Assembly: GCA_963811165.1 (NCBI GenBank)
Contig: CAWEQH010000004.1
Location: forward strand, 640,001 to 704,000
Length of the DNA: 64,000 bases
Origin: an uncultured Nitrospiraceae bacterium
GTDB taxonomy: Bacteria > Nitrospirota > Thermodesulfovibrionia > Thermodesulfovibrionales > UBA6898
Reading direction: 5' to 3'
The notes below the pieces were generated by a model that was given only the letters and a program-made list of their open reading frames with translations, ran no database searches and had not been told where the DNA came from. Below, in pieces: positions 31,618 to 50,095 of the stretch; positions within the stretch are counted from its first letter, which is position 1; each line of letters begins with the position of its first letter. The translations under genes and the position numbers were made by a program.

Positions 31618-31730
31618 ACCCTTACCTTCCTCCTTTTGTTTGCTACGAACCGGTTGTCTTTCCAATACCATGTTCCCACGAAATTGGTCCAATTACAATT
31701 TTGCGGGAACTTGATATTGCCCCTAAACAA

Positions 31731-31763: not shown

Positions 31764-31958
31764 TTAAAATTTCAATTAGTGTTCATACTGAAAATTTTGA
31801 AAGGTAAAAAATATAAATATATCGGGGAGATAATCTATCTTGATTTGGAGAGCAGAGGATATTCATAAAGGAGACGGCAATGCATTAACCGAGGTACTAT
31901 CGGGCACTACTATTTCATAGTAGAATTTATTTAGAACACAAAATAAGGAGGAGCGGTT

Positions 31959-32570: not shown

Positions 32571-32585
32571 TTTTCCCGCCAAACT

Positions 32586-32637
32586 GCCGCAGGGTATTTT
32601 TCATCGGTGAAAATGCCCTGCGGCCTTCGTTTTCTTT
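32586..32637 (+). terminator. Probable terminator after the peroxiredoxin
   Basis: GCCGCAGGGTATTTT...AAAATGCCCTGCGGC stem followed by a T-rich tract. Confidence 0.6.
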
Positions 32638-32690
32638 AATCTCCCCAAATGTGATAACATATCAAAAAATATTTCTTGAGAGGGAGATAC

Positions 32691-33884
32691 ATGCTGTCTG
32701 ACAGGGCTGGAAAAATTAAACCTTCACCTACACTCGCCATTGATTCAAAGGCGAAGTCCATGAAGGCCTCCGGAGTCGATGTGATAAGTTTCGGAGTGGG
32801 CGAACCGGACTTTGACACACCGGAAAATATAAAGGAAGCGGCCGCCAAGGCGATGAAGGACGGTTTTACGAAATATACCGCAGTGGGCGGGATCGATCCC
32901 CTCAAGGATGCGATAATCGACAAGCTGCAAAACGACAACGGCCTTTCCTACAAACGGGAAGAGGTTATCGTCTCTACAGGGGCGAAACATTCTCTTTATA
33001 ATGTTGCGCAGGCACTTTACGGACCGGGAGATGAGGTGTTGATCCTTTCACCCTACTGGGTCTCTTATCCGGACCAGGTCATGCTGAATGATGCAACCCC
33101 TGTTTTTGTGAAAACATATGAGGCGGACTCCTTTATGGCAAGACCCGAGGCGCTCGAGGAAAAGATAACAAAAAAAACAAAGGCCCTGATACTGAATTCT
33201 CCTTCGAACCCCACAGGGATGATCTACGACAGAAAGACCCTCGAAAAGATAGCCGAGTTGTCTCTCAAATATAATTTTTATATTGTCTCGGATGAGATTT
33301 ATGAAAAACTCATCTACGGAGAGGCTGGACATATAAGCATTGCCTCTTTGGGCGAAGAAATGAAAAGGAAGACGATCGTCATAAACGGTCTTTCGAAATC
33401 CCATGCAATGACCGGTTGGCGAATAGGATACGCCGCCGGCCCGGCCAATATCGTCAAGGCGATGACGAACATCCAGAGCCAGTCTACCTCCAACCCGACG
33501 TCGATCGCGCAAAAAGCGGCTGTCGAGGCGTTGAGGGGGCCTCAGGATTTTGTCGGAACAATGCGGGCCGAGTTCGACAAAAGAAGACGCTATCTTGTTG
33601 AGGAACTGAATAAGATACAGGGGATGACCTGCATCATGCCTCAAGGCGCTTTTTATGCGTTCCCCAATACCTCCCGCCTTTATGGGAAGAGGTTCGGAGG
33701 CCGGGAGATAGCGTCCTCGGTGGACCTTGCGCTTTACTTCCTTGATGAGGCGAATGTTGCCCTTGTCCACGGCTCGGCGTTCGGGGACGACGAGTATGTC
33801 CGGCTTTCCTACGCAACGTCTCTTGAGGACATCAGAAGAGGGGTGGGAAGGATAAAAGAGGCGGTGGGCAAGCTTACGCCATAG
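32691..33884 (+). CDS. Class I PLP-dependent (aspartate) aminotransferase
   Basis: GEPDFDTP, GAKHSL, NSPSNPTG, SDEIYE, SKSHAMTGWRIG. Confidence 0.93.
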   Translation: MLSDRAGKIKPSPTLAIDSKAKSMKASGVDVISFGVGEPDFDTPENIKEAAAKAMKDGFTKYTAVGGIDPLKDAIIDKLQNDNGLSYKREEVIVSTGAKHSLYNVAQALYGPGDEVLILSPYWVSYPDQVMLNDATPVFVKTYEADSFMARPEALEEKITKKTKALILNSPSNPTGMIYDRKTLEKIAELSLKYNFYIVSDEIYEKLIYGEAGHISIASLGEEMKRKTIVINGLSKSHAMTGWRIGYAAGPANIVKAMTNIQSQSTSNPTSIAQKAAVEALRGPQDFVGTMRAEFDKRRRYLVEELNKIQGMTCIMPQGAFYAFPNTSRLYGKRFGGREIASSVDLALYFLDEANVALVHGSAFGDDEYVRLSYATSLEDIRRGVGRIKEAVGKLTP

Positions 33885-33921
33885 AGGCGGGAAGCACGTT
33901 TACCCTTTTGTCAGGAGACAG

Positions 33922-34809
33922 ATGCAAGAGTCTTTTCGTTCCGGATACGTTTCGATCATCGGCAGGCCGAATGTGGGAAAATCTACTCTCCTAAACGTCC
34001 TGCTGGGACAGAAGGTCTCGATCGTTGCCGCAAGACCCCAGACGACGAGAAACAGGATAGTCGGGATCAAGAATCTCCCCGGAGCCCAGATCATCTTTAT
34101 CGATACCCCGGGCATCCACAAGCCGAAAAACCTCCTCGGAGAGGTGATGCTTAGGGCCGTCAGGGAGGCCCTTCATGAAATAGACGTCATCCTCTTTGTG
34201 ACGGAACCCGGAGGTGACGCAGGCAGGGACAACCTCACAGTAGGGTCTCTGAAAAATATAGACAAGCCGGTTTTTCTTCTGATCAACAAGATAGACAGTG
34301 TCAGGAAACCGGATATACTTCGTGTCATCGATCAGTACGAGGGACTTTTCCCTTTCAAAGAGATCATCCCGGTGTCTGCTCTCAAACAAGACGGCACCGA
34401 CAGGATACTTGAAAGAATTATCGAGTATCTTCCGGCGGGCCCTCAATATTATCCTGAAGACATCGTAACGGACCAGGTCGAGAGGTTCATGGCGGCCGAG
34501 ATAATAAGAGAAAAGATTATGGAAAAAACGACCGAGGAAATCCCTTATTCCGTTGCGGTCGAAGTCCAGAACTGGGTCGAGCGGGAAGACGGTATCGTTT
34601 CCATAAGTGCGAATATATATGTTGAAAGAGAGGGGCAAAAAGGTATAATAATAGGTGAAAAAGGCAGGAAGCTGAAAGAAGTAGGCACGCTCGCCCGTAT
34701 CGAAATCGAAAGACTTCTTGACGCAAAGGTTTTTCTCCAATTATGGGTGAAGGTAAAAAAGGGGTGGCGTAACGACAAGACGGTGTTACATGAATTGGGG
34801 TATAAATAG
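33922..34809 (+). CDS. era: GTPase Era
   Basis: GRPNVGKST, PQTTR, DTPG, NKID, EIPYSVAV, KH domain IIGEKG. Confidence 0.97.
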   Translation: MQESFRSGYVSIIGRPNVGKSTLLNVLLGQKVSIVAARPQTTRNRIVGIKNLPGAQIIFIDTPGIHKPKNLLGEVMLRAVREALHEIDVILFVTEPGGDAGRDNLTVGSLKNIDKPVFLLINKIDSVRKPDILRVIDQYEGLFPFKEIIPVSALKQDGTDRILERIIEYLPAGPQYYPEDIVTDQVERFMAAEIIREKIMEKTTEEIPYSVAVEVQNWVEREDGIVSISANIYVEREGQKGIIIGEKGRKLKEVGTLARIEIERLLDAKVFLQLWVKVKKGWRNDKTVLHELGYK

Positions 34810-35262
34810 ATGCTTGTAGAAATGAAAGTCGAGGGTCTTCTCTTTGACCCCCGAAGCAATATGTACATTCTCCTGCTGAAGGAGATAGAAGCTTCCGGCA
34901 CCCTTCCGATCTGGATCGGGAAACCCGAGGCGGACTCGATCGCACTTGCGCTCGGAAAGGTCGCCACGCCCAGACCCCTGACCCATGACCTCGTGAAAAA
35001 TATCACCGATGGACTTAAGGTCAAGATCACGAGAATCGTGGTGACGGAGATAATCGACAACACCTATTACGCCCTTATCCACGTGAGCGACGGCAAGAAA
35101 GAGACCTTGATTGACTCCAGGCCGAGTGATGCCGTGGCGGTTGCCCTTAGGGCAAGCGCGCCGATTTTTGTGGAGGACAGTATTATGGCGACAAGGACGG
35201 CGGATGAACTTGACGAATGGCTGAAAAACCTTAAGCCTGAGGACTTCGGAAATATTATGTGA
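34810..35262 (+). CDS. Bifunctional nuclease family protein (DUF151)
   Basis: LPIWIG..EA, RPLTHDL, DSRPSDAVAVALR. Confidence 0.92.
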   Translation: MLVEMKVEGLLFDPRSNMYILLLKEIEASGTLPIWIGKPEADSIALALGKVATPRPLTHDLVKNITDGLKVKITRIVVTEIIDNTYYALIHVSDGKKETLIDSRPSDAVAVALRASAPIFVEDSIMATRTADELDEWLKNLKPEDFGNIM

Positions 35263-35981
35263 TGCTGCATAGGACAGAAGGCATCGTCCTTAGAACCATC
35301 CCCTTTGGAGAAGCAGACCTCATCGTAACCTACCTGACGAGTGACTACGGCATCGTCAGGGCCTTTGCAAAAAGTCCCCGTAAGATCAAAAGCAGGTTCG
35401 GAAGCAGCCTCGAACCCTTCACCCATGCGGCTATCGCTTTTTGGGGCAAGGAGGACGCGGCTCTGCCGCGACTTACCCAGGCGGACATTATCCATCCTTT
35501 CGATTCTGTCAGGGGCGCACTAAAATGTTTTCTGAAGGTTTCGGAGATGATAGAACTGACGCTGCACTTTGTTCCCGAGAGGGAGCGAAACAAGAAGGTC
35601 TATTCCCTCTTCCTGGATGCGCTTCACGCGGCCGAGACCGATTGTGAGGCCGGTCTTCTTCCTCTTTGCTATAAACTGAGGCTGTTGGAGATTGCGGGAT
35701 ATCTGCCCAGGTTGAGCGGATGCGGCAGGTGCGGGAGAGACGGAGACGTCTTCTACCTTTCTCACGGCACCGTCCTTTGCGAAGCATGTGCAAAGGGCAA
35801 TACGTCTTCCCTGCGGCTGTCTTCCGGCACGATAAGTCTCTTTACCAGTCTGCGCGGATGGGATTTTACGAAGCTCAACCGGTTGAGGCCTTCGGAAGCG
35901 CTCGTTTCAGGGCTTTCGAAGGTATTGGACGAACATATTCGCTACATTATGGAAAGAAACCTCAAGACGAAGACCTTCTGA
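35262..35981 (+). CDS. recO: DNA repair protein RecO
   Basis: EGIVLR..FGEAD, KSRFGSSLEPF, CGRC/CEAC zinc finger; era-recO synteny. Confidence 0.93.
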   Translation: MLHRTEGIVLRTIPFGEADLIVTYLTSDYGIVRAFAKSPRKIKSRFGSSLEPFTHAAIAFWGKEDAALPRLTQADIIHPFDSVRGALKCFLKVSEMIELTLHFVPERERNKKVYSLFLDALHAAETDCEAGLLPLCYKLRLLEIAGYLPRLSGCGRCGRDGDVFYLSHGTVLCEACAKGNTSSLRLSSGTISLFTSLRGWDFTKLNRLRPSEALVSGLSKVLDEHIRYIMERNLKTKTF

Positions 35982-35991
35982 ATCCCTGCCG

Positions 35992-36627
35992 TTATTGTTC
36001 CCGCATCCTCTCTTCTTCTTCCTGGAGGGTCTTGCATTCTATGCACATGGTGGTCACAGGCCTGGCCTCCAGCCGCTTCACGTCGATTTCATTTCCGCAG
36101 TCGTCGCAGACCCCGAAGGTACCGTTTTCGATGCGGTCTATGGCCTCATCGATCTTTTTCAGGAGACGCTGCTCTCTGCCGCGGAGTCTCAGCATAAAGT
36201 TCCTGTCGGTTTCAGCCGTCGCCTGGTCGCCAAGGTCAGGGAATATCGTCTGGCCGGGAAGTTCGTTAAGCGCTGATTCGGCTTCATTAAGCAAAGTCGC
36301 GCGTTGCCTGAGGAGCCTTAACTTGATCTGTTGGAGCTTTTCCTCGCGGACAGAAAGCTTTTCTTTAGGCTTATTGGATTTCTTCACAGGCACCGCTGTC
36401 ACAGGCTCCCTACGGGAAACCTTCATTGGAGCCGAAACAACTTTTTTCTTCGGGGCTTTGGCGGCAACCGCTTCTTTCTTCCCCTTCTTTGAAGGTGCCG
36501 TCTTTGCCTTTTTGGGAGACGCTGTCTTTGCCTTCAGAGTTATCGATTTCTTCCCTGCGGGTTTCGTCTTCGCAGGTTTTGTTTTACTTACGCTTTTTTT
36601 GGTATTGGTGCTCTTGATCTTGGCCAT
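35992..36627 (-). CDS. dksA: DksA with Lys/Ala-rich N-terminal extension
   Basis: DLGDQA coiled-coil tip, CDDC...RLEARP...CIEC. Confidence 0.9.
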   Translation of the reverse strand: MAKIKSTNTKKSVSKTKPAKTKPAGKKSITLKAKTASPKKAKTAPSKKGKKEAVAAKAPKKKVVSAPMKVSRREPVTAVPVKKSNKPKEKLSVREEKLQQIKLRLLRQRATLLNEAESALNELPGQTIFPDLGDQATAETDRNFMLRLRGREQRLLKKIDEAIDRIENGTFGVCDDCGNEIDVKRLEARPVTTMCIECKTLQEEEERMREQ

Positions 36628-36782: not shown

Positions 36783-39131
36783 TCAGTCTTCCGCCGGGAG
36801 GTCTCTTTGTGTAATGAGTACGATGCCCTGCCCGGGGGCGAGGTCGTAGATAAAGGGAGCAGGAATATAGTCGAGAGGATTTTCGGGAGATATGTCGATA
36901 AGAGGCGCGCCGGCCTGGAGATATTTCTGAAGGTTCTCGGCATAAAAATGCTGTGCGCGGTAAATGTCTTTGTTGAGGATGAGGAGCGACTCCTCCCGGG
37001 TATGGGTCGAGGCCTTCCACATAAGCAGGACATTGGGGTTTTCGTGATGGAGTATTTCCGTGGGCGCGTCCTCCTGAAATATCACATGCTCAGATTTGAT
37101 CCTGTTTACTTGGCCGATGAAGGGGGTGAGGTCCACTTCGGTGTTCTCCCAGTCGCCGGGTCTTGTCCTGACTACATGGAGCCTTTTTTTGAAGCCGAAT
37201 TCGTAACCCATGGGCATCATGACACCGCCCGAAAAAAGCGCCGAAAAAAGATATCGCTGCTTCAGCCCTTCAACATTTCCGCCCAGCTCCGCAGCGAGTC
37301 TTACGGTATCATGGCTCTCGGGGAAACTGATCGATGGAGCGATATCCCGCGTCAGCGCGTACTGCTTCATGAGCCAGTGCCCGTAAAAATCCCACCATTT
37401 GGAGCTGTTAAAAATATAGTCGAACCCCGCGCTTGCGGTCTTTCTCGTGAGGTCCGGAGGGTTCCCGAGTGTCTCCGCAAAAAACAGTACGCCCGGATAT
37501 GCCTTTTTGGTTTCATTGATGAGTCTTTCCCAAAGGCCCTTGGGCAACTGGTAGGCCGCGTCGCATCTGAACCCCCTGAACCCGAGTTCGGCGAGGAATT
37601 TCACTATCGAAAAGAAATAGTGATAGAGACCTTCTTTGTCCCTTGTGTTTCTGTGGTCGAACTTCGCAAGGTCTTTCCAGACCACTTTTTTCCCGTTTTC
37701 GTCGGCGAAGGGATGGGCGACGCGGCCGTTTGTCTCCCAGAGAAACCATTCCGGGTGGGATTTGAGAAGGGGGGAATCGACTGAGCAATGGTTGATCACA
37801 AGGTCCATCATCAGCGCAAGACCGAGTTTCCCGGCGACTCCCGCAACATCCTGTACCTGCTCTACGGACGACTTTCCCGTTTCATTGTCAATCAGGAGGG
37901 GATTAAAATCGAAATAGTCGGCTATGGAATAGAGACTCCCCGAACTGCCGGGGCGCTGTATGGGGTTGACGAAGATCCAGTTGAAACCCATCTCTGATGC
38001 CCTTGCGAGGTGGCCCCCCCATTCGGTAAATTTTCCGGCAAGAAGAGGAAACAGATTATAGATCACCATCTTTTTCGTGTAAAGGACTTCTTCGGCATCC
38101 GGACATGCCTTCAGGAGCAGCCTCTGGTTTTTTGAGATGACTGAGAGCCAGTAATTCATTCTTTCCGCATTGCCTTTGTCCACCCAGTGACTAAAGAGAT
38201 ATGACGCGTTGCCTAATGAGAGCCTGCCTTCGACCGGGTGTATCTCCAGGGAAAAAGAGACCTTGTCAGCCCCGGGTTTGAGAAGCGCCTCGTTGACGAT
38301 ACGGGAAAGCCCCGACAGACCGAACATCGGTGCAAGAGACCTTTTCCCGTGATATTCGAAGGGGATCGGGATCTCGGTCAGGAAGCTGAGGTGGTCCGAG
38401 ACGCCGAAAGGACTTAAGTCGGAAAGCGGGTGGCCGTCGTGAAGGTGGAAGTGCAGGGGCTTCCCAAGCGGACCGAGCTCCCGGACGACCGAGAGCACTT
38501 TTTCCAGTGCGGAGGCGACCGCGCGTTCAACGTCTTCAATAAGGTCCGGGAGGTTGGGGCTGTCCGGCCTTAGTGAGCAGATGTCTTTACCCGGATGTTT
38601 CCGGGAATATTCGGCCCTCGTCTGCCGGATGCCTATGTGCCCCACGTCTATGCATGCACTGACGAATTCGAGGTCCGCTATCTCTTTAAAGATATTTACG
38701 AAGACCTCCGGGTCGAGACCTGCCGCATATTCGATAAAGAGGAGAGGACCTCCTCCGACTTCTCTCAGTCCGGAATTCAGTTCCCGCAGGGCAGAGAGAT
38801 ATTCCTTCAGAAGCATAGGGACATCATCCCGGTCATGGACCACGAGGCCGTAGACCCTCCCCTTGAAACCCCTTGCGAAATCGATGACCGACTGTCTTGA
38901 CGATCTATCGAATATGTTCATGCCGCGGTCGAGATGCACAACTACCGGCGCATCATGAAAAGGCCGGAAGCCCAGGAGCCATTCGAGCTCCTCTGCGGAT
39001 GCGGCATAATATTCCGCCCCCATCCTGGCTTCCCTGAAGCGCAGTGCCGCAAGCTGAAGCAGGGCGTCGTCGCCGTCTATTCTTTTTTGAAACAATCCAA
39101 GTATTTTGGGACAGGTCCTTATCGCCGGCAT
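36783..39131 (-). CDS. Xylose-isomerase/AP-endonuclease-like TIM barrel fused to a GH13 alpha-amylase-family domain
   Basis: N-terminal IEY, IDVGH, HFHLHDGH, SDHL, LEIH. The C-terminal part (from about 38069) has DLVINH, GFRCDAAY, FAETL and ESHDT, the GH13 regions with the D/E/D triad. Confidence 0.85.
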   Translation of the reverse strand: MPAIRTCPKILGLFQKRIDGDDALLQLAALRFREARMGAEYYAASAEELEWLLGFRPFHDAPVVVHLDRGMNIFDRSSRQSVIDFARGFKGRVYGLVVHDRDDVPMLLKEYLSALRELNSGLREVGGGPLLFIEYAAGLDPEVFVNIFKEIADLEFVSACIDVGHIGIRQTRAEYSRKHPGKDICSLRPDSPNLPDLIEDVERAVASALEKVLSVVRELGPLGKPLHFHLHDGHPLSDLSPFGVSDHLSFLTEIPIPFEYHGKRSLAPMFGLSGLSRIVNEALLKPGADKVSFSLEIHPVEGRLSLGNASYLFSHWVDKGNAERMNYWLSVISKNQRLLLKACPDAEEVLYTKKMVIYNLFPLLAGKFTEWGGHLARASEMGFNWIFVNPIQRPGSSGSLYSIADYFDFNPLLIDNETGKSSVEQVQDVAGVAGKLGLALMMDLVINHCSVDSPLLKSHPEWFLWETNGRVAHPFADENGKKVVWKDLAKFDHRNTRDKEGLYHYFFSIVKFLAELGFRGFRCDAAYQLPKGLWERLINETKKAYPGVLFFAETLGNPPDLTRKTASAGFDYIFNSSKWWDFYGHWLMKQYALTRDIAPSISFPESHDTVRLAAELGGNVEGLKQRYLFSALFSGGVMMPMGYEFGFKKRLHVVRTRPGDWENTEVDLTPFIGQVNRIKSEHVIFQEDAPTEILHHENPNVLLMWKASTHTREESLLILNKDIYRAQHFYAENLQKYLQAGAPLIDISPENPLDYIPAPFIYDLAPGQGIVLITQRDLPAED

Positions 39132-42100
39132 TCCACTTGCCTCCTCTGCTGCGGACGTGCCTGGACAAGGAAGATTTTGTTATCGACGACGAGCCCTTCT
39201 ATGTCCAGCGGCAGTCCGAATGAAGTTTCGACGAGGCTGCCTATGCCTCCTATGCGCTTAGATAATTCGGTGCGGAATTTCTTATCCTTTGAAAAGGGAA
39301 TTTTTGAGTAGTCGATGATACTTTGTACGATATCCGCGCGGCGGTCCCGGACAAAGGCAGTGCAGTAACTGGCGAAGGAGAGCATCTGCATATCGCCGGT
39401 GTTTTTTCGGTAGACCATACGAAACGGAGAGCCGGGCTCACGGCCCGACGCAAGGGTTTCGCCGAGTCCGACTGCACACTCAATCAGGATTTCGTTTTCG
39501 CTATTGTTGACGGGATTGACCGTATGCATGATGAAGGACATATCGGCAGGCATCATCGTCTGGATGAGTACCGCCATCCGGGCCCTGCCATGGGGGACAG
39601 ATGCGTTTTGTCTTGCCTGTACCGCACGCCTGTTCCAAAGTGATGCCCATACCTCTTTTACTGCCTGTGCGATACCGGACTGCGGCACGTTTGAGATGGA
39701 ATCATAAAGCCCGGCCCCCGCAAGTCCTTCCAGGTCCTCACAGTTCGAACTCGAACGGACCATGAGCCGCTCGCCCTTTGCAAAATGGGCAGCAATGCCA
39801 GAGACCAGCTCATTGTCCAGAGGAAGCTGTAAGACTAGCTCCCTGAGTCTTTGCAGCCGCCCCTCCGCGTCCAGGAGTGGCGCTCGATCAATTTTGCTTA
39901 AGACAGAGGAGTATTCAGCCTCAAAAGAAGAAAGGGAATGGAGTGACTCCTCCATGACCCCAAAGGGGATTACGACACTCCTGGGCACGTCGAAATCAGT
40001 CTTACTCTGTGTCGCGATCTCCGCGAGGCGCCTTGCCCCGTCCGCCTTCCCGCCGCCGGTCGACGAACTGACCACGTCGAGCGTGATGATTTTCCGAGAG
40101 GGAATCTCAGCAGAGACCTCCGGCACGATCACCTTCTCGGTGCGACCTTTAAAGTCATCCCCGTCCTCCATCTTCGTGGCTTCTATATCAAAGGTGTCTG
40201 CGGTCACGCATATCCTTATCGGTTGTCCGGAAAGTCTCTTTAGCTCCACGATGCGGCTGATGTTTTCGCACGAGACAAATACTATGCCCCTTTGGCGCGC
40301 CCTGACCGAAAGATGCGAAAGAATCGGGGTCTCATCGGCAATAATGAGGCCAATGACCTGCGGGGGTATCTCCTCGTCGCCTTCAGCTTTATCCGTCAAC
40401 ACGACGAGCGGTCCGTCACCGGCATCTGCCAAAGAGGCCAATGACCGGACAGTTACGAGGCGGCCCGATGCTTTGCCCGGGACGATGACGTCCCACGGCT
40501 GCAAGGAAGCGCGTGTCCTGATGGACGTAAGGAGCAAAGCGACAAGCTTAGAGAGCTGAAATACCGGATGGCTTCTGATAACGGCTTCTGCATAGTTCTT
40601 TACCGCATGCTCCGACACACCCAGGGCGGACCCCAGATTCTTCACCTTCTCCGGCAGCAGCGCAAGGATTTTGTCCGAATATTCTTCGGCGACCCTGCGG
40701 CACCTGTCTGTGGTGGCTTTAAGACGCAGGAGACAGTCGCGGTCTGCAAGGTCGAAATCGGCATCCCAAGCCCCGAGTTCGGCTTCGACGGCGCGGCATT
40801 CCTCGGGGGCGATTCCTCCGAGACGGAGATTTTCTATGACGAGGGCGAGTGCGCCAAGGGCGGTGTTCCAGGGCAGATCCTCCAAAGAGGCTATCGCATT
40901 GATGATTGTGCTGAGAAGGACAAAGGAGTGGTCTTCGAGCGTGATATCTGCAGACTTCAGACGGTGCCCCTTTGCGGCCGCGATTTTATCAGTCCGGGCA
41001 ATGGCCCTGCGAAGTCCTGTCAATAGGGCGAGTTCCTTTATGGCGGGATAAGGGTTTCCTGGTTTTTCGCCGGACCCTTCGGAGAGGCCGAGGAAGTCGT
41101 CTATGAGTTGCGGTCTGTCAATATCACCCTTTTCCTTTAATGTAATGAGCATGTCTTTAAGACTGCCTGCGTTAAAGAAGTCCTTCAGCTCCTTGTGGAA
41201 GCGCCTGAACTCCTCAATGAAGGCCTGCGGGTATGGGGCGTCCGAAGCCGTGATTCTCTTAAAGAGGGCCTCGGAAGTTATGAGGTCCTCAGGCCCTGCC
41301 GAACGGTGGAGTTTGTTCTGAAGCGTTGTCTTTATCTCCTGTTTTAACTCCTGCGGGATGTCGTTTCTGTGGGCGATGTCCCTGATACGGGTGAGCGGCT
41401 CGGCCCTCATAAACTCGGTATCGAATGAGGGGAGCCATGGATAGATGTTCCTTATGACCAGCCTGTTTTCCGCATTCTCGATTCCGGCAAGGCGCGTATA
41501 TATCCGTTCAGCAAGTTTTGCATGGTGCGAGGGACGGTGGTGACCTCCTTCCTCGCTGCAGCCGATCTCACCTGTACCAAGGAACCTCAGATAGACAGCG
41601 ATATAGATGAGCAGTTCCAGGTCCGGGTCCTCAGGTCCTTCGATCAGCAGCCTATTGACCCATTCAAGCCTCTTCCTCCAGCTGGTAAAGCGTCTGTTGG
41701 CTGCGACAAACCTTTCTACGATCCCCTCATGCGTATCAGCTTGGCCTGGTCTTTCTTCGGGCGTATCTGCCGCTCCGCGTATAATAGTAATGAGTCGGTC
41801 CCTTGCATCGATCAGAAGACGTTGCGGCTCGGGCCACTGTTCAAAAATTATCGAACCTGAGAACATCCGCTTCTTCAGCCGTATGATAAGCCCTTCTATC
41901 CCGGCGGGGTCCCGGCCTGCCGGACCGGTGAAAATCGTTAAGTGGCTGTCCCGGTCTCCGTAATTTTCATGCATATGGATATGGATGATAGGGACCTCCT
42001 TATCAAGCAGGTCCAGGAAGCCGAGATAATCATTTCGCGTCCCGCTATAGAGGTTTGCATGCCCTATGTCGAGACACATACCAACGAGAGAAATATTACC

Positions 42101-42586
42101 GGAATTGAATTTCCGCAGCTCGTGGAAAAAAAGATTGAAATCCGCCGGTGATGTATACACTGTATTTTCGACCGAAAGATGAATGCCCGCCTCACCAAGT
42201 ATGACCAGAAGAGGCCGGAGGGCAGCTATAAAGGCCGCCGGTCCCAGGTCCGAGCGAAGATGGACATTAAAAAGCGATGCGCCGATGTCCTTCGCAAATT
42301 CGACAGTCTCTTGGAAGGACGCCGCATCAGTCGTAGTCAAAGGGTCCGACGGCCAGGGGGCATGCACTGAAAGACGTATATCCCGGGCTTCCGAGAGACG
42401 GCGGATATCAGTGCGCGTCTTTTGAGGGATATCGCTTAGCAGCCAGCCTTCTCCTGTGGTTTTTTTGTCCGGAAACCACTCAAAGGCACGAAACCCGTTC
42501 TCCACTGCAAATTCAAATGGTTTCATGATGGGAGCAGCCGAATAGGCGGTCTGGTTGCCGATCCTTATGGAGGGGTTGTCAGGCAT
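39119..42586 (-). CDS. Phosphoglucan water dikinase (PWD/GWD3)-like protein with N-terminal TIM-barrel domain
   Basis: GGHHRP, LPSF..EF...PLTRIRDIAHRNDIP.ELKQEIK.TLQNKLHR.AGPEDL, phospho-His LSHLSVRARQ, nucleotide domain VRSSSNCEDLEGLAGAGLYDS...VQARPQ. Start overlaps the GWD stop by 8 nt. Confidence 0.88.
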   Translation of the reverse strand: MPDNPSIRIGNQTAYSAAPIMKPFEFAVENGFRAFEWFPDKKTTGEGWLLSDIPQKTRTDIRRLSEARDIRLSVHAPWPSDPLTTTDAASFQETVEFAKDIGASLFNVHLRSDLGPAAFIAALRPLLVILGEAGIHLSVENTVYTSPADFNLFFHELRKFNSGNISLVGMCLDIGHANLYSGTRNDYLGFLDLLDKEVPIIHIHMHENYGDRDSHLTIFTGPAGRDPAGIEGLIIRLKKRMFSGSIIFEQWPEPQRLLIDARDRLITIIRGAADTPEERPGQADTHEGIVERFVAANRRFTSWRKRLEWVNRLLIEGPEDPDLELLIYIAVYLRFLGTGEIGCSEEGGHHRPSHHAKLAERIYTRLAGIENAENRLVIRNIYPWLPSFDTEFMRAEPLTRIRDIAHRNDIPQELKQEIKTTLQNKLHRSAGPEDLITSEALFKRITASDAPYPQAFIEEFRRFHKELKDFFNAGSLKDMLITLKEKGDIDRPQLIDDFLGLSEGSGEKPGNPYPAIKELALLTGLRRAIARTDKIAAAKGHRLKSADITLEDHSFVLLSTIINAIASLEDLPWNTALGALALVIENLRLGGIAPEECRAVEAELGAWDADFDLADRDCLLRLKATTDRCRRVAEEYSDKILALLPEKVKNLGSALGVSEHAVKNYAEAVIRSHPVFQLSKLVALLLTSIRTRASLQPWDVIVPGKASGRLVTVRSLASLADAGDGPLVVLTDKAEGDEEIPPQVIGLIIADETPILSHLSVRARQRGIVFVSCENISRIVELKRLSGQPIRICVTADTFDIEATKMEDGDDFKGRTEKVIVPEVSAEIPSRKIITLDVVSSSTGGGKADGARRLAEIATQSKTDFDVPRSVVIPFGVMEESLHSLSSFEAEYSSVLSKIDRAPLLDAEGRLQRLRELVLQLPLDNELVSGIAAHFAKGERLMVRSSSNCEDLEGLAGAGLYDSISNVPQSGIAQAVKEVWASLWNRRAVQARQNASVPHGRARMAVLIQTMMPADMSFIMHTVNPVNNSENEILIECAVGLGETLASGREPGSPFRMVYRKNTGDMQMLSFASYCTAFVRDRRADIVQSIIDYSKIPFSKDKKFRTELSKRIGGIGSLVETSFGLPLDIEGLVVDNKIFLVQARPQQRRQVECRR

Positions 42587-45500
42587 TATCAATACCGACC
42601 TGCTGTCGCGACTGGACAACATAGAACTTGCCCTGAGAATAAGCCCCCTCGATGTCCTGGGGAGGTCCGAGCGCCCTGTCCACTTCAGGTCCTATCCCGG
42701 CGATACCGGAGAGGATGTTTTTTCTGAAGGCTTCGTCCCATAAAAGGCGGTCCTTCGTATAATCGATCGTGACTTTCTTCGGTTGCGGCAGCAGAAAGCT
42801 GTCGTAAAGACCCGCCCCTGCGAAACCCGGCAGGTCCTCGCCGCTTGAATCCGAGCGGAAGATAAGACCGCCCCCATAAAGGCCTTCGCTCTTACTCGGA
42901 AATGAAAGTATGTAGGGTGCGCCTCCATCTTTTTTGCTGGTAAAGCTGAGTGCTTTTCCAGGGTAATTGCCGACGAGCGCCTCACCGAGACCGAGCACAA
43001 CCTCCGCATATATCTCGTCTTTTGCCTGTGAAATCGGGTTTACTGTGTGGATCACGAAACTGTAGTCAGCCTCGACCACCTTTTGGATAAGTACCGCCAT
43101 AAAAAGGTCCTCATGAGGTATCCCGTGTGCCTCGCGGCTGAGATGGGCCCTTTCGTTCCATTTTGAGGCCCATACGCTTTTGATACAGCTCCACGCATCT
43201 TCCCACTTCGGGGGCCGTGAGATACCTGAGGCGTCCATGACCGAATAAAGGGATATACTTAGTTCCTGGGGAGCCTTCATATCGTGTATCGTCTTTCTGA
43301 TTTCCTCAAGCAGTTCCCGGGGTTTCTCCGGACCGTCCGCGAGCTTCTGCATGAGTTCAATGATTTTTCCGGCACAGTCCCTATTCTCATCATGAGACAG
43401 GACTTTATCGAACACGCCGAAGGGCAGGGCGGCAGAGGCAGGAAGCCCGATCCAATCGGGGAGGTTTCCCCTCAGGAGTCTCAGGTGGTTCGATTTTCCG
43501 CCGACGTTCATCTCGGTGAATTCATCCATAGTTACCGCATAGCTTGTGAAAGCGGGTTTTGCGGCCGGCCCCGCTGAATATTGCACCCCGGCAGCAGGGA
43601 CCACCCCTGCTCCAGCCATCTCCTCGGCAACGATATCGCCGCTTGCGGTTATTCCCATTTTTAGTGTATGTCCTTTTAGGGACTTCAGGTGATCTAATTG
43701 CGCCGCATTGTAACACGTGGCGAATAGGACACCTGCGTTTCTTGCACGCACCGCAATATGGGAGAGCAGGTCGACAACTGCCGGGGTAACTATCGCAGAG
43801 ACCCCCTTTGGGATCTCCTCATATCCTGTGACCTTCCCGGCCACTATGATGGCCGGCCGGTCGAAACTTTTTCCCTCGACGGACTTCAGCGCATCGGCGA
43901 TCTCCAGTTCCCCTTCAGCATGTGCCGGACTTATCACCTGCCAGTCTCCCATGAGGGCGTTCTTCCTAAGAAGAGGGTCGAGGTATCGCAAGAGGATCGA
44001 CATGGCGAAGGCAAGACGGCCGCGCAGCACCTCTTCGACAAAAAGGGTTACGGCCCACGCATCCGCCCGAAATGCCCCTCCAAGATATTCCGCCTTAGGC
44101 TTGAAAAGCCGGTTATACTGATCTACAAACATCCCTAGGTACCGGCCTATCCGGTCGGTCACCGCCTTGGCGTGGAGCGACCATTCCCGCCCGAACCTCT
44201 CCATCCTTCTGAGCTTCTCCCAGTGACTCAGGCAGTTGAGGAGTTCTTCTCCGGCATTTGTGATGCACAGGTTCTCAAGCACCTTCGAGGTCATCTCCGT
44301 AAGCTCGTTGGGGCCGAGATCGGGTACGCCGGACCTCTCTACGACAATTCGCAGGAAGTCCTCAAGTGCGATGTCGAGAAAGAGGAAGTCACGGACCGTT
44401 TCTGCGCGACCTGTCAGATGGTTTGCGGTCCTGCGGCGTGCCTCGGTGATTTTTTCGGCGAGTATGCCGGCCATTCCTGCGTCGTTGTGATGGCGCCAGA
44501 TGAAATCCATAACGGCGTGCATATCGGGGTCGAAAAGGTATCTCGCCGTATGAATTGCAGTGCCCAGATCGGTGCCTGTATGGACCGCCTTCAATATCCC
44601 GAGGAAATGCTCGAAGTCGCGTATCAGGGGGTCTTTCAGGTGGGGAATGAAATCGGGGTGCGATCTGATCGGTCTCTCATAGCCTTCAAGCCTCTCCCTT
44701 GTGACGCCGCCCTCATTGAGTTTCTTGTAGAACCAATCGAGGTTGCCGTTGCTTCTGAGGAACTCCAGATATGCCTCGCAGATCACGATATCGTCGGGGG
44801 TCGTGTTGTTGTGCAGTTTCTGGTGCCACTCCTCCATAAAATGGCCCGAGACCTCTTTGATATTATGGCGGTGCATGATATTTAAGACCTCGTCGCGGAC
44901 CCGCTGGGCGTCTCCGCCTCTGCCGAGTGTTGTCATAATGAGTCTCAACATCTCACGCCCGGCGGGGTTTTCCGCATAAAGGCTTGCGAGTTTTAAAGTG
45001 AGCCTGTCCATCGAGTGGCCGAGTTCTCTGGGCTGTGTATTGTAATTGCGCTGCCAGTCGAGCTGTCTGATAAATGAATAACGGAGCCAGACGAAGATCA
45101 GGGCGAGGCCGTCGACGCTGTCTTTGACCTTATCGAGAAGGTCATAGCAGAGATTGAAACGGTGCATCAGCGTCCAGGAATTCCGGCCTGTTTCATGTTC
45201 GATGATCTCTTCCGCGATAGGAAGGAGTTCCCCTCCTCCGAGGGCCGCGTCGCCTGCCGTCTGCGCAATCACCGGGATATCGATCCGGTAATTTTTTCCG
45301 CGGTTATTGTCCCAGCGGTTGTCTCCCGGAAAAAAGAGGACGAAATCCACCGAGCTGAGGCCGGAGGAGCTATCGAGAATGATTTCTATAAGAGCATGGC
45401 CGTCCTTTTTTAAAAAAGGCGTCTGGATCGCCTTAGAGCCGAAGGCGCGGCTGCCCTCGGGCCATGATTGCTTTGCAGGGACTTGCCATGACGCGTTTCC

Positions 45501-45638
45501 TCTTTTTCTGACCCCCCAATGAAGGAGAGCGTCGGTATCGGCATCCGCACGGATGGTGATCTCTGTAACAGAGTCCCCGATCTCCTTTTCGACAAACAGC
45601 ACGAGGCCGTTTTCAGTTGTGATTTTATCTTTTTGCAT
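42579..45638 (-). CDS. Alpha-glucan water dikinase (GWD1/R1)-like protein with N-terminal CBM45-like module
   Basis: LHWGV...QTPF...FVL...WDNNRGKNY, RQLDWQRNYNTQPREL, QRVRDEVL, EEWHQKLHNNTTPDD, DLLSHIAVRARN..LFATC, VWASKWNERA, RSDSSGEDLPGFAGAGLYDS. The alternative start at 45680 overlaps a TATAAT. Confidence 0.9.
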   Translation of the reverse strand: MQKDKITTENGLVLFVEKEIGDSVTEITIRADADTDALLHWGVRKRGNASWQVPAKQSWPEGSRAFGSKAIQTPFLKKDGHALIEIILDSSSGLSSVDFVLFFPGDNRWDNNRGKNYRIDIPVIAQTAGDAALGGGELLPIAEEIIEHETGRNSWTLMHRFNLCYDLLDKVKDSVDGLALIFVWLRYSFIRQLDWQRNYNTQPRELGHSMDRLTLKLASLYAENPAGREMLRLIMTTLGRGGDAQRVRDEVLNIMHRHNIKEVSGHFMEEWHQKLHNNTTPDDIVICEAYLEFLRSNGNLDWFYKKLNEGGVTRERLEGYERPIRSHPDFIPHLKDPLIRDFEHFLGILKAVHTGTDLGTAIHTARYLFDPDMHAVMDFIWRHHNDAGMAGILAEKITEARRRTANHLTGRAETVRDFLFLDIALEDFLRIVVERSGVPDLGPNELTEMTSKVLENLCITNAGEELLNCLSHWEKLRRMERFGREWSLHAKAVTDRIGRYLGMFVDQYNRLFKPKAEYLGGAFRADAWAVTLFVEEVLRGRLAFAMSILLRYLDPLLRKNALMGDWQVISPAHAEGELEIADALKSVEGKSFDRPAIIVAGKVTGYEEIPKGVSAIVTPAVVDLLSHIAVRARNAGVLFATCYNAAQLDHLKSLKGHTLKMGITASGDIVAEEMAGAGVVPAAGVQYSAGPAAKPAFTSYAVTMDEFTEMNVGGKSNHLRLLRGNLPDWIGLPASAALPFGVFDKVLSHDENRDCAGKIIELMQKLADGPEKPRELLEEIRKTIHDMKAPQELSISLYSVMDASGISRPPKWEDAWSCIKSVWASKWNERAHLSREAHGIPHEDLFMAVLIQKVVEADYSFVIHTVNPISQAKDEIYAEVVLGLGEALVGNYPGKALSFTSKKDGGAPYILSFPSKSEGLYGGGLIFRSDSSGEDLPGFAGAGLYDSFLLPQPKKVTIDYTKDRLLWDEAFRKNILSGIAGIGPEVDRALGPPQDIEGAYSQGKFYVVQSRQQVGIDNA

Positions 45639-46051: not shown

Positions 46052-47107
46052 ATGCCTGAAAAGACGATCGAATCCTTCGGCGTCAAGCGCCTTGAAATCC
46101 TCAGCGAGACCGGGGACGCGGATGCCGCACTTATGCCCCCGCTTTCAGACGCGCAGATTAAGGAGCTTTACGAGCTGCTTGTAATTTCAAGGACCTTTGA
46201 CGGCCGCGCACTGAATCTTCAGAGGGAAGGAAGGCTAGGCACCTATGCGCCTGTTTTTGGGCAGGAGGCCTCTCAGGTAGGCAGCGCCTATGCCTTTGAC
46301 AAGACCGACTGGCTCTTCCCGACGTTCAGGGAGATGGCCGTCTTCATGGCTGTGGGTTATCCGATGCATATGATCTTTCAGTACTGGTCCGGCGACGAAC
46401 GAGGCCTCAGGGTGCCGGACGACCTCAATATCTTTCCCATCTCTATCCCGGTGGGTACACATATACTCCACGCCGTCGGCGCGGCGATGGCTATGAAATA
46501 CAAAGGCGACAAGAAGGCTTCCGGGGTATATTTCGGAGACGGAGGCACGTCTGAGGGCGATTTCCATGAGGGCATGAACTTCGCGGGAGTGTTCAACGCG
46601 CCGGTCGTCTTTATCTGTCAGAACAACCACTGGGCGATATCCGTGCCGAGGGAAAAACAGACGGCAGCGAAAACCCTCGCCCAAAAGGCCGTGGCCTACG
46701 GATTCGAAGGTATTCAGGTCGACGGTAACGATGTCTTTGCCGTGTACAAGGCCACAAAGGATGCTGTGGACAAGGCCAAAAGAGGGGAAGGCCCCACACT
46801 GATAGAATGCGTTACCTACAGGATGGCAGACCATACGACCGCTGATGATGCGTCGAGGTACAGGACGAAAGAAGTGATAGAGGCATGGAAGCCGAAGGAC
46901 CCGATCCTGAGGGTGAAGCTTTTCATGGAGAAGAAGGGCATATGGACGGAGACCGATCAGAAGGAACTTGAGGAGAAGTCGAAGGCCAGGGTCGACGAAT
47001 GGGTGAAGATGGAGGAGGCGATAGAGAAGCCCTCTCCGAAGGACATGTTCCTCTATACCTACGAAAAACCCACCCCGCGACAGATCAAAGAGATGGGGGA
47101 TTTTTGA
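46052..47107 (+). CDS. pdhA: Pyruvate/2-oxoacid dehydrogenase E1 alpha
   Basis: LQREGRLGTYAP..GQEA, TPP motif GDGGTSEGDFHEGMN...NN, HTTADD. Confidence 0.9.
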   Translation: MPEKTIESFGVKRLEILSETGDADAALMPPLSDAQIKELYELLVISRTFDGRALNLQREGRLGTYAPVFGQEASQVGSAYAFDKTDWLFPTFREMAVFMAVGYPMHMIFQYWSGDERGLRVPDDLNIFPISIPVGTHILHAVGAAMAMKYKGDKKASGVYFGDGGTSEGDFHEGMNFAGVFNAPVVFICQNNHWAISVPREKQTAAKTLAQKAVAYGFEGIQVDGNDVFAVYKATKDAVDKAKRGEGPTLIECVTYRMADHTTADDASRYRTKEVIEAWKPKDPILRVKLFMEKKGIWTETDQKELEEKSKARVDEWVKMEEAIEKPSPKDMFLYTYEKPTPRQIKEMGDF

Positions 47108-47108
47108 T

Positions 47109-48071
47109 ATGCCGAAAATGAACATGGTCCAGGCGATCAACCTTGCCCTTAAGGAGGAGATGGAGCGCGACAAAAACGTGGTCGTCCTCGGGGAAGACGT
47201 GGGCAGAGACGGAGGCGTTTTCAGAGTGACCGAAGGGCTCCTCGATCTCTACGGCCCCGAGCGCGTAATGGACACGCCCCTGGCCGAATCGGGTATCGTC
47301 GGCACCGCCATAGGCATGGCCGCCTATGGGTTGCGTCCGGTTGCCGAGATCCAATTTATGGGTTTCATATATCCCGCGGTCGATCAGATATTCAATCATG
47401 CCGCGCGAATGCGCTCGCGCTGCCGAGGAAGGTACACCATCCCCCTTGTCGTCAGGACACCTTACGGCGTCGGCATAAAGTCGCCGGAGCACCATTCGGA
47501 AAGTTCAGAGGCGCATTTCTGCCATATGCCGGGGATAAAGGTGGTTGTCCCTGCGACCCCGTATACTGCCAAAGGACTGCTCATCTCTTCGATCAGGGAC
47601 CCGGACCCGGTGGTCTTTCTCGAATCGACCAGGCTTTATAGGATGATAAAGGAAGACGTTCCGGAGGGTGAATATACCATTCCCCTGGGGCAGGCGAGGG
47701 TCGTGCAGGAAGGCAGGCAAGTTACCGTCATCTCCTGGGGGAGTATGCTGCACAGGGCCTTGCAGGCGGTGAGCGCGGTCGATGCCGAGGTGATAGATCT
47801 TATGACCCTTCTGCCTTTTGATGAGGAGACGGTATACAAGTCCGTGAAGAAGACCGGCAGGGTTGTGATTGTGCAGGAGGCCCCGAAGACCGGCGGGTTC
47901 GGCGCCGAGATCTCGGCATCTATTGCGGAAGATGCGATGCTTTATCTTAAAGGACCGATAAAGAGGGTGACCGGCTATGACGTGGTGCTCCCCCTCCCGA
48001 AGCTCGAGGATTATTATATGCCGACGGTAAACAGGATAAGGAAAGAGATCAATGAGGTTTTGAAATATTGA
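47109..48071 (+). CDS. pdhB: Pyruvate/2-oxoacid dehydrogenase E1 beta
   Basis: GEDVG..GGVFRVT, DTPLAESGI, EIQF, EHHSES. Confidence 0.9.
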   Translation: MPKMNMVQAINLALKEEMERDKNVVVLGEDVGRDGGVFRVTEGLLDLYGPERVMDTPLAESGIVGTAIGMAAYGLRPVAEIQFMGFIYPAVDQIFNHAARMRSRCRGRYTIPLVVRTPYGVGIKSPEHHSESSEAHFCHMPGIKVVVPATPYTAKGLLISSIRDPDPVVFLESTRLYRMIKEDVPEGEYTIPLGQARVVQEGRQVTVISWGSMLHRALQAVSAVDAEVIDLMTLLPFDEETVYKSVKKTGRVVIVQEAPKTGGFGAEISASIAEDAMLYLKGPIKRVTGYDVVLPLPKLEDYYMPTVNRIRKEINEVLKY

Positions 48072-48110
48072 ACGGGGCCGGCGGGCATACAAAAAGAAAG
48101 GTTTAATTAA

Positions 48111-48971
48111 ATGGAAAGAAAATGTTATCGCTTTGAGTGGCTTGTGATCGTCATTCTTTTGCTGTTTCCTCTTTTGTCCCATGCCGCGGAAATGCAGGCT
48201 GATGAGAAATCCCCCGAAGCGGCTTCGGATGTTTCGGAACCGCAGCCCGAGCAGAAATCCCCGGAAGCAACTTCGGAATCTGCCGCTCCCGGACCTGCCA
48301 ACGAGGGGATGCAGGAAGAAGAAGGAGGGATTGTCGATCCCTTTGAGCCATGGAACCGCGTTATGTTCACCGTTAATGACAGGCTTTATTTCTGGCTGAT
48401 GAAGCCCACGGCGAAACTGTATAACTTCTTCATCCCGGAATGGGGCCGTATCAGGGTGCGAAATGTTGTGCATAATGTGGCCACGCCCGTCAGGTTCGTC
48501 AATTCGGTCCTTCAACTGAAGTTACATGCCGCCGTTGCCGAACTCGGCCGGTTCGTGGCGAACACCGTAGGAGGGCTGGGGGGAATGTTTGAGGTCGTAA
48601 AGGACAACCCCGAGATAGGTACGTCCGACCGGGACTTCGGGCAGACCCTCGGCAAGTACGGAATACCTAACGGCTTCTATATCATCTGGCCCGTCTTCGG
48701 CCCCTCTTCTTTCAGAGACAGCATAGGAATGGCAGGCGACGGATTTTTGACCCCCGAGAATTATATTACTCCTTTTTGGGACTCGGTGGCTGTCCAGGCT
48801 TACGAGAAGGTAAACGATGCCTCCCTCAAGATCGGTGATTACGAAGACTTCAAGGAATCTGCCATCGATCCTTATATTGCGATGAAGGACGCTTATTATC
48901 AGTACAGGAAAAGCAAGGTAAAAGAGGAATCCTACAGCGGCCCGCTGTTTAAGGAAAAAGACCGTCCATAG
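48111..48971 (+). CDS. mlaA: VacJ/MlaA family protein
   Basis: DPFEPWNR, RFVANT.GGLGG, DFGQTLG, GPSS.RD, DPY...KDAY.Q.R. Confidence 0.9.
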   Translation: MERKCYRFEWLVIVILLLFPLLSHAAEMQADEKSPEAASDVSEPQPEQKSPEATSESAAPGPANEGMQEEEGGIVDPFEPWNRVMFTVNDRLYFWLMKPTAKLYNFFIPEWGRIRVRNVVHNVATPVRFVNSVLQLKLHAAVAELGRFVANTVGGLGGMFEVVKDNPEIGTSDRDFGQTLGKYGIPNGFYIIWPVFGPSSFRDSIGMAGDGFLTPENYITPFWDSVAVQAYEKVNDASLKIGDYEDFKESAIDPYIAMKDAYYQYRKSKVKEESYSGPLFKEKDRP

Positions 48972-49004
48972 CCAAAAAGGAGCTCGCTTCAGTCGTCCTT
49001 TTTC

Positions 49005-49622
49005 TTATGGTGTTTCTTTGAGTGTCTTCTTTTTAAGCCTCTTTACGAGCTCCTCGTATGACGACGACCTGATGATCTGGCTGAATTGGCTGCGGTAATT
49101 ATTGACGAGGCTTACCCCCTCCACGATAATGTCATAGACCTCCCATTTATTTGTCTTCTTAAAGATCCTGTATTCCACCGGGATCTCGGCCTCCTGGGTC
49201 TTGACGATCTTCGTCCTTACGACGGCGTATTGACCGGTTATGCTCTCATCCAGATAGACGACCTTCTCGTTTTCGTAGCGTTCGATCTTCTTTATGTAGG
49301 TATTTTCAAGGAGGTCAGAGAAAAGGGCAACGAATTCTTTCTTTTCATCCGGGGTCCTCTTGCTCCAGTTGAGGGCGAGAGAACGTTTCGCCATCTCTTC
49401 GAAGTCGAACCGCTTGTCGACGATCTCTCGAATCTTCTTTGTCCTGAGTTCCCTGTTTTCAGGCCGTTTGAGTTCTTTGTTGTTTAAGACATCCATTACC
49501 GCGTCGACGGTCTGCTTTACCTGGTCGGTGGCCTCTCCGGCCAGGGCGGTTCGCGGTTTGAACGAGCTGAGAGATAGACAGAGCAAAAAGACAAAGAATA
49601 TTTTCAAGATCGGACTATTCAT
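49005..49622 (-). CDS. mlaC: MlaC/Ttg2D periplasmic lipid-binding protein
   Basis: FDFEEMAKRSL, YDIIVEGVSLVNNYRSQF. Confidence 0.92.
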   Translation of the reverse strand: MNSPILKIFFVFLLCLSLSSFKPRTALAGEATDQVKQTVDAVMDVLNNKELKRPENRELRTKKIREIVDKRFDFEEMAKRSLALNWSKRTPDEKKEFVALFSDLLENTYIKKIERYENEKVVYLDESITGQYAVVRTKIVKTQEAEIPVEYRIFKKTNKWEVYDIIVEGVSLVNNYRSQFSQIIRSSSYEELVKRLKKKTLKETP

Positions 49623-49635
49623 ATCGGGGTCCCTC

Positions 49636-50076
49636 CTATACCTTGCCGAAGACGTATTTAGAGATAAGCGATTCTATATCGATGGCGGATTCGGTGTCCA
49701 TTATTCTTCCGCCTTTAGAGATGTACTTGTCGGACGCTCCCGGAGTGAGTTGTACGAATTTTTCTCCGATGAGCCCTTTTGTCTTTATCGACGCGATGGA
49801 GTCGTCCTGGAGCTTTATCCCTTTGTTGATCTCCAAGGTCAGGAGTGCCTGATATTTGTCGAGATTCACATCCGTAACTTTTCCGACAGAGACCCCCGCG
49901 ATCTCGACGCTGGCCCCCGGCTTTATCCCCCCTGCCTGGTCGAATTCGGCATAGACAGTGTACCCTTTAGTCACGAAGACTTCGAGACGGCCCAGTTTTA
50001 CGGATATGTAGGCAAGCGATAATATGCCTATCAGCAAAAAAAAGCCGACTGCAGTTTCAAGGTCGATCTTCTTCAT
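49636..50076 (-). CDS. mlaD: MlaD MCE-domain protein
   Basis: F...GGIKPGASV.IAGV.VG, IKTKGLIGEKFVQL.PG. Confidence 0.93.
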   Translation of the reverse strand: MKKIDLETAVGFFLLIGILSLAYISVKLGRLEVFVTKGYTVYAEFDQAGGIKPGASVEIAGVSVGKVTDVNLDKYQALLTLEINKGIKLQDDSIASIKTKGLIGEKFVQLTPGASDKYISKGGRIMDTESAIDIESLISKYVFGKV

Positions 50077-50095
50077 ATGTATATCGGTTGCGCCA

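Follow-up and report, generated by a model that had tools for sequence, protein, structure and literature searches.

The closest described counterparts of the genes reported here are the α-glucan water dikinase GWD1 (EC 2.7.9.4) and the phosphoglucan water dikinase PWD or GWD3 (EC 2.7.9.5) of plants and algae, together with the phosphatases SEX4, which prefers C6, and LSF2, which is specific for C3; these preferences and the redox control of GWD are covered by the accessible sections of PMC12892837. Bacteria with GWD have been mentioned before, in the legend to Fig. 9 of Cenci et al. 2018 (PMC6260743), bacterial rows may also appear in the supplementary GWD tree of bioRxiv 10.64898/2026.09.25.754361, and JGI labels such proteins α-glucan or phosphoglucan water dikinase. 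The available parts of PMC6260743 describe no operon, bacterial PWD or partner barrels, and the main text of PMC13553574 makes no mention of bacteria. Our literature search found no account of a bacterial GWD-PWD operon or of the barrels described below, most subscription journals being outside its reach, so that it is no proof of absence. Here we analyse a window of 64,000 nucleotides (positions 640,001 to 704,000 of contig CAWEQH010000004.1, assembly GCA_963811165.1) from an uncultured Nitrospiraceae bacterium (Nitrospirota), in which genes for GWD and PWD form a compact operon with two barrel proteins, termed T1 and T2. A bacterial GWD itself is not new; what is new is a conserved module found in multiple phyla.

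The module consists of three open reading frames (ORFs) on the minus strand (45638–42579, 42586 or, in the longest frame, 42622–39119, and 39131–36783), which overlap head to tail and encode, in this order, GWD, a T1 barrel fused to PWD, and a T2 barrel fused to a GH13 amylase-type domain (Table 1). The likely start codon of the PWD gene (ATG 42586) overlaps the GWD stop, and the third gene overlaps the PWD stop. Pfam recognizes an AP-endonuclease-2 barrel, a phosphohistidine and an ATP-binding domain in the second ORF and GH13 in the back half of the third; the catalytic triad of the latter is retained in 64 of 65 sequences. A preliminary description of this DNA had placed the two dikinases correctly; absent from it were the barrel heading the PWD gene in place of CBM20 and the third overlapping gene. 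The complete order GWD>T1>PWD>T2>GH13 recurs in 34 of the 186 loci with any core gene, and most remaining loci are subsets in the same order, many of them truncated by contig ends. Some of the counted loci are identical or nearly so, and alignment to T1-PWD, which favours loci with both, brought in 80 loci. We propose that by means of the three genes the cell reversibly phosphorylates its own reserve of α-glucan, a reading which we consider somewhat probable.

Genomes in which the phosphohistidine family exceeds its cut-off number 16 of 301 in the host phylum, 8, 8 and 1 of 301 in the phyla of loci L078, L032 and L067, respectively (each count including its centre genome), and none of 14 among the controls. 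Even within the host family it is patchy, being present in 2 of 16 genomes besides the host. Named records stem from Nitrospirota, Deltaproteobacteria/Desulfobacterota, Scalindua, Verrucomicrobiota, Acidobacteria and Chloroflexota, and no match to GWD was obtained in plasmids and viral contigs, both of these searches being limited. Among 151 genomes of the order, T1 is found in 31, all of which belong to the 35 with GWD (31/35 versus 0/116 of the others), and T2 in seven, all within the nine with PWD (7/9 versus 0/142). Two further genomes of the order with a double hit hold two GWDs. On the level of loci, T2 accompanies PWD in 81 of 88 cases versus 1 of 37 loci with GWD but without PWD. Both pairings persist where the genes are unlinked, as in the single-contig genome G096 (GWD, 677 kb; T1, 23 kb) and in G343 and G601, where GWD, T1-PWD and T2 lie on three contigs. 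The GH13 partner occurs in 21 of the 151 genomes, 19 of them with GWD. No test statistic is attached to these co-occurrences because the 151 genomes are kin. At four loci (L125, L130, L170 and L172) the arrangement is GT5 synthase, T1-PWD and T2, and GWD is missing from the 6 kb upstream.

The window GWD and PWD share 26% identity over 893 aligned residues and are therefore not recent duplicates, in line with the preliminary description, which had assigned each to a different plant paralogue. Identities over 794 shared columns bear this assignment out: the window GWD reaches 44.1% against a plant GWD (Ricinus) and 23.7% against a plant-type PWD (P0164), the window PWD 41.4% against the latter and 25.5% against the former, and the two window proteins 27.0% against each other. 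Against the solved potato-type central domain (9ha9/9qvi), GWD scores an E-value of 1e-90, whereas PWD gave no match; the closest titled relatives belong to the Thermodesulfovibrionales (80% and 74%). In a tree of 99 rows (26 GWD from eukaryotes and 22 from bacteria, 26 PWD from eukaryotes and 25 from bacteria), selected by hand from at least 196 and at least 156 cores, GWD is split from PWD with a support of 100 in the Shimodaira-Hasegawa-like approximate likelihood ratio test (SH-aLRT), and each window gene stands with its eukaryotic counterparts. Eukaryote labels follow the source names where given, about half of the eukaryote-type rows being assigned by CBM20-type N-termini or tree position. 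A duplication within bacteria, joining bacterial GWD with bacterial PWD, is rejected in the approximately unbiased (AU) test (p=6e-20, difference in log-likelihood 912, LG+F+G4) and likewise with LG+C20 and posterior mean site frequencies (PMSF) on 53 of the 99 rows (p=4e-4, difference 744), which upholds separate orthology; all AU tests, these included, were based on fast searches, and such searches can reject constrained trees too readily.

The catalytic His is kept in 126/126 bacterial GWD ORFs and 113/113 PWD ORFs, and an Arg matching R904 of potato GWD is present in all. Residues E535, E536 and R539 of the window GWD sit in a motif that matches E900, E901 and R904 of the potato enzyme (PMC13553574, as far as accessible), a correspondence by motif and not by direct alignment. 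The CBM45 residues W41 and W51 are conserved in 121 of 126 bacterial GWDs. The window PWD has the PWD-type core and branches with eukaryotic PWD; it is an orthologue of different architecture, since a PF01261 barrel replaces the N-terminal CBM20. Three variants are of note. P0264 (2496 aa) is a giant ORF that has a signal-like stretch at its N-terminus and two tandem dikinase units, each composed of part of the helical domain plus a His and an ATP domain and about equidistant from GWD and PWD; it is possibly a third dikinase family and useful as an outgroup. Short bacterial GWDs of 917–927 aa with no detected CBM45 (L178–L180, L079) are minimal candidates for structural work. Genomes G227 and G635 (L110, L111) carry a second, divergent GWD paralogue instead of PWD.

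As to the origin of the pair, the trees indicate that GWD and PWD had already split when their bacterial and eukaryotic copies parted. The preliminary description had left two alternatives, an old split with a possible bacterial donor and the capture of both genes from a eukaryote; the old split stands, capture from the land plant lineage does not, and both alternatives survive if the eukaryotic donor was early. Nesting of bacterial GWD in streptophytes is rejected under both models (p=2e-4 with LG, 1e-4 with C20), as is joining bacterial PWD to green PWD (p=4e-4 and 0.02), while bacterial GWD with all greens is borderline (p=0.03, LG only). A mirror tree with bacteria as sister to eukaryotes in both families passes (p=0.53 and 0.12). 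Codon usage of GWD and PWD, a check suggested in the same description, is host-like (distance percentiles 20 and 5, percentiles of G+C at third codon positions 56 and 41), which excludes only a recent arrival. A bacterial donor, an early-eukaryote donor and the mirror tree each survive at least one model, and the trees do not pick the donor.

A bacterial donor for at least PWD comes close to an even prospect in our view. The wider scenario, in which bacteria came first and passed the adjacent paralogues to an early eukaryote, where CBM20 then replaced T1 and laforin-type phosphatases took over from T1 and T2, is a serious candidate just short of probable. It accords with trees in which eukaryotic PWD is nested in bacteria, as a single clade (85 SH-aLRT) in the quick LG tree and again in the best LG+C20 PMSF tree (p=0.91), with the passing mirror trees, with the passing of eukaryotic GWD nested in bacteria under C20 (p=0.155), and with the same domain order in the third dikinase type P0264, presumably of prokaryotic origin. 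The same nesting, for which a single placement with a seven-row bacterial clade was tried, is rejected under LG (p=0.009), and none of the free trees has eukaryotic GWD inside bacteria. Furthermore, roots drift to long-branched rows owing to the great distance between the two families in the tree, and sampling of Cyanobacteria and Chlamydiota was confined to one control genome, with Pseudomonadota also left out.

Possible, if rather less so, is an early non-green eukaryote as the source, from which both genes would have been captured, joined with bacterial barrels into an operon and spread laterally among bacteria. A view of this kind is hinted at in the accessible part of Cenci et al. 2018 (PMC6260743). 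In the unconstrained trees the bacterial GWDs are gathered in a single, fairly shallow clade (99 SH-aLRT) that lies among eukaryotic rows, a weakly supported position that tells against a bacterial source; their union with glaucophyte, red and dinoflagellate rows passes (p=0.24, LG only), most bacterial PWD fall inside eukaryotes in other fast trees, and the patchy distribution over the four phyla points the same way. Against an early-eukaryote source speak the rejected streptophyte and green placements, the best LG+C20 PMSF and quick LG trees with eukaryotic PWD inside bacteria, the equally deep branching of PWD in bacteria and eukaryotes, and the presumable need for two captures of nuclear genes. 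Two further sets of proteins were noted. CBM20-PWD proteins on metagenome contigs of 23–77 kb (P0201, P0185, P0223) branch as eukaryotic and were treated as such, and dinoflagellate-type GWDs fused to GH13 (P0492, P0494, P0497–P0499, P0502–P0511) echo the bacterial GWD-GH13 neighbourhood.

The two-cysteine motif CFATC has a redox role in streptophyte GWD1. The window GWD reads LFATC at this position, and the first Cys is found in 0/126 bacterial GWDs, so the disulfide motif is missing from them, in line with the absence of the switch that the preliminary description had stated for the window protein. LFATC is, however, no bacterial peculiarity: it or a similar sequence occurs in chlorophytes, in both 'tig' rows (which we take to be glaucophyte from the style of their identifiers) and in the grass Zizania, and CFATC, present in 115 of the 119 proteins P0272–P0390 (nearly all land plants) as well as in Klebsormidium, Chara and a fern, is confined to streptophyte rows. 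This distribution indicates that CFATC is a streptophyte gain rather than a bacterial loss. The single CBM45-like module noticed before is confirmed by Pfam. Since two such modules occur in 54 of 122 bacterial GWDs (one in 64, none in four) and in most early-branching rows, the single module of the window protein is likely a derived state that arose by loss. These distributions rule out LFATC and the single CBM45 as marks of a primitive bacterial state.

T1 belongs to the PF01261 superfamily by Pfam, above cut-off. Nine residues, H73, H107, E138, D171, H174, H202, D211, H213 and E247, are invariant in 92/92 T1 sequences and align with the endonuclease IV motifs, so that, by sequence, the endonuclease IV ligand series His-His-Glu-Asp-His-His-Asp-His-Glu is present throughout. 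The nearest NCBIfam families are CbiR phosphodiesterase for 35/35 members, endonuclease IV for 9/35 and 7/35, and epimerases for two and one. T2, for which a profile search by sequence against solved structures found no relative, has the same barrel in a predicted model (predicted local distance difference test, pLDDT, 93; Z up to 19.6, root-mean-square deviation 3.2 over 252 aligned residues) and a similar invariant set (H66, H99, E134, D162, H165, H229, D246, H247 and E296); a model computed for T1 from its sequence alone was of poor quality (pLDDT 49) and was not used. T2 is joined to PWD itself in at least nine representatives. No dual-specificity phosphatase domain was detected in the operon by Pfam, and the only DSPc match of the host is a frame of 188 aa elsewhere. 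Based on these residue patterns and on the co-occurrence with the dikinases, T1 and T2 are on balance probably glucan phosphatases; a strict pairing of T1 with C6 and T2 with C3 is doubtful.

Several observations weigh against T1 and T2 as phosphatases assigned to GWD and PWD. The CbiR score of the window T1 is 35 versus a cut-off of 105 bits, the Nfo models being weaker and all far below cut-off; the T2 fold search ties IolE dehydratases, sugar epimerases and AP endonucleases (Z 19.6 to 16), and T2 reads D-H where T1 reads D-x-H, the late Asp being shifted by one. T1 is usually fused to PWD and not to GWD (100 of 123 PWD ORFs), at the position of CBM20 in eukaryotes. Four GWD genomes of family f8 lack T1 and have only distant barrels (E 1e-11 to 1e-14), two PWD genomes of family f7 (G237, G273) lack T2, the co-occurring genomes are kin in which operon genes hitchhike, and at locus L118 a dual-specificity phosphatase adjoins T1-PWD. 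An unlikely but reasonable alternative is that the kinases act as described and that T1 and T2 are phosphoglucan-binding stand-ins for CBM20, or isomerases, epimerases or dehydratases acting on sugars or sugar phosphates from glucan breakdown. The N-terminal position of T1 in PWD would fit the former, and the IolE and D-tagatose epimerase-like proteins among the top fold matches of T2 the latter, as does the wealth of sugar isomerases in the superfamily (PMC7733943, accessible part). Yet nine or more invariant His, Asp and Glu residues are needless for a pure binding module, a free T1 gene stays with GWD at 19 loci where PWD is missing, and phosphodiesterases are the nearest families of T1. 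Two other phosphatase-type genes were observed at related loci. The gene at L118:4399-5586 (PF00782, 396 aa), directly upstream of T1-PWD, possibly encodes a laforin-like bacterial glucan phosphatase, and no second one of its kind was found among the fetched loci. A calcineurin-like metallophosphoesterase gene lies upstream of GWD, at a distance of about 2.6–5 kb, in seven loci of related organisms where T1 is missing (L116:401-1534 and six others); it may be a replacement eraser or a case of plain synteny.

SS4-like synthases are linked to insoluble granules in cyanobacteria. By family searches the host possesses GlgC, two GlgA, GlgB, GlgX, GH57 enzymes, TreY/TreZ and phosphorylase. One GlgA has plant starch synthase 4 as its best match among solved structures (436 bits versus 239 for the next glycogen synthase), and the other is ordinary. 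This SS4-like GlgA is present in 24 of 35 GWD genomes versus 3 of 116 others, its absence at the cut-off used from the remaining 11 GWD genomes counting against the proposed system; its gene (G000:C1:636267-637775, L214:2267-3775, NCBIfam PRK00654.2-4 type) adjoins the module in 29 loci. Another glycogen gene is found in 63 of 118 loci of at least 10 kb, recurring neighbours being a GT5 synthase (29 loci), GlgB (13) and GH57 branching-type enzymes. In this setting the kinases very probably act on a storage glucan. That the operon serves external or imported starch instead, as its GH13 amylase-type domain might suggest, is highly improbable, given the ATP requirement of the kinases, the synthesis genes next to the module and the lack of a transporter cluster among the recurring neighbours.

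For the proposed reversible phosphorylation of the cell's own glucan we envisage the following course. GWD would bind the glucan via CBM45, transfer the β-phosphate of ATP onto His627 and, in analogy to plants, phosphorylate C6, and on the chains primed in this way PWD would add a phosphate at C3. The GH13 domain, GlgX and phosphorylase would then cut into the loosened surface. T1, likely acting with GWD, and T2, likely acting with PWD, would remove the phosphates as endonuclease-IV-like metallo-phosphoesterases, filling the roles of plant SEX4 and LSF2 through an unrelated fold. A glucan that is insoluble in part and made with the co-occurring SS4-like GlgA is the likely substrate. This scheme builds on the genes, their orthology, the conserved catalytic residues and the co-occurrence; the activities, the C6 and C3 positions, the pairing and the insoluble substrate are deduced from them. 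Its most far-reaching form appears improbable to us, namely a full starch-type cycle on a semi-crystalline storage glucan in several phyla, with T1 (C6) and T2 (C3) as new position-specific metallo-barrel phosphatases and the operon as the source of GWD and PWD of early eukaryotes.

The flanks of the module (window 29235–36627 and 46052–55643) look ordinary and presumably encode, as we read the sequences, cytochrome bd subunits, an aminotransferase, era, recO, a 2-oxoacid dehydrogenase set and a Mla-type ABC system; these labels are our own assumption, only DksA and the E1 subunit having been scanned against families. No mobile element was noticed in the flanks, no search having been aimed at such elements. 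Terminator-like sites in the window exceed those in shuffled sequences (23 versus 11.7; none interpreted), and the promoter scan of the window gave no excess (4 sites versus 6.1). That the genes stem from eukaryotic contamination, were captured recently or go back to the duplication of a PEP-synthase-like gene has a negligible probability, as the only pointer in this direction, the NCBIfam matches of the dikinases to PEP synthase and rifamycin phosphotransferase models, is far below cut-off, and is opposed by overlapping intron-free genes amid bacterial genes on an 879-kb contig, host-like codon usage, more than 100 bacterial-type homologues and the rejected duplication.

Table 1. Features of the dikinase module, in positions of the 64,000-nucleotide window.
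Feature	Position	Strand	Remarks
GWD orthologue, 1019 aa: CBM45-like module, central helical, phosphohistidine and ATP-binding domains	42579..45638	-	possible upstream ATG 45680
CBM45-like module of GWD (PF23166), residues 3-120	45279..45632	-	Pfam
GWD central domain, residues 132-561	43956..45245	-	match to 9ha9/9qvi
GWD phosphohistidine domain	43617..43943	-	His627 codon 43758-43760; LFATC 43713-43727 = residues 638-642
T1-PWD fusion gene	39119..42586	-	longest frame from 42622; ATG 42586 likely start
T1, AP-endonuclease-2 TIM barrel, predicted metallo-phosphoesterase tracking GWD	41765..42580	-	residues numbered from 42580
PWD orthologue core without CBM20: TRIRDIAHR and QNKLHR motifs, ATP-binding domain	39122..41752	-	His770 40313-40315
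T2, second barrel of the same superfamily, distantly related, tracks PWD	38097..39131	-	overlooked by Pfam
GH13 domain fused behind T2; dispensable partner	36783..38081	-	triad D524/E553/D608

The gene content suggests that some bacteria likely run a starch-type cycle of adding and removing phosphate on stored carbohydrate. The module supplies candidate enzymes and opens three questions to testing: whether storage glucan is phosphorylated in bacteria, whether there is a second family of glucan phosphatases unrelated to laforin and SEX4, and what the source of plant GWD and PWD was. Compared with the evolutionary question, the stronger lead is this conserved module, whose two candidate phosphatases have a fold for which no action on glucan phosphate is known. 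The bacterial kinases may also suit structural work and enzymatic starch modification because they are shorter and free of the plant disulfide motif.

Compared with the described systems, the window GWD shares with plant and algal GWD1 the order CBM45, central, His and ATP-binding domain, a core identity of about 44%, and the catalytic His with the facing Glu/Glu/Arg. It differs from plant GWD1 in its one CBM45 instead of two, the lack of DUF7067 and its encoding in an operon, and from streptophyte GWD1 in the missing first Cys of the disulfide motif. With PWD/GWD3 the window PWD has in common a core identity of about 41%, the PWD-specific motifs and the branching against GWD with a support of 100, while T1 replaces the N-terminal CBM20 of the eukaryotic enzymes; some relatives instead carry a C-terminal T2. 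T1 and T2 resemble endonuclease IV, CbiR and MJ1311 (PF01261) in fold and, by sequence, in the pattern of His, Glu and Asp ligands, but score below the cut-offs of these families and stand in a glucan context rather than among genes for DNA repair or cobamides. To SEX4, LSF2 and laforin they would be alike only in the proposed job, by analogy: those enzymes are cysteine-based dual-specificity phosphatases, whereas T1 and T2 are predicted multi-metal TIM barrels of unrelated fold and chemistry.

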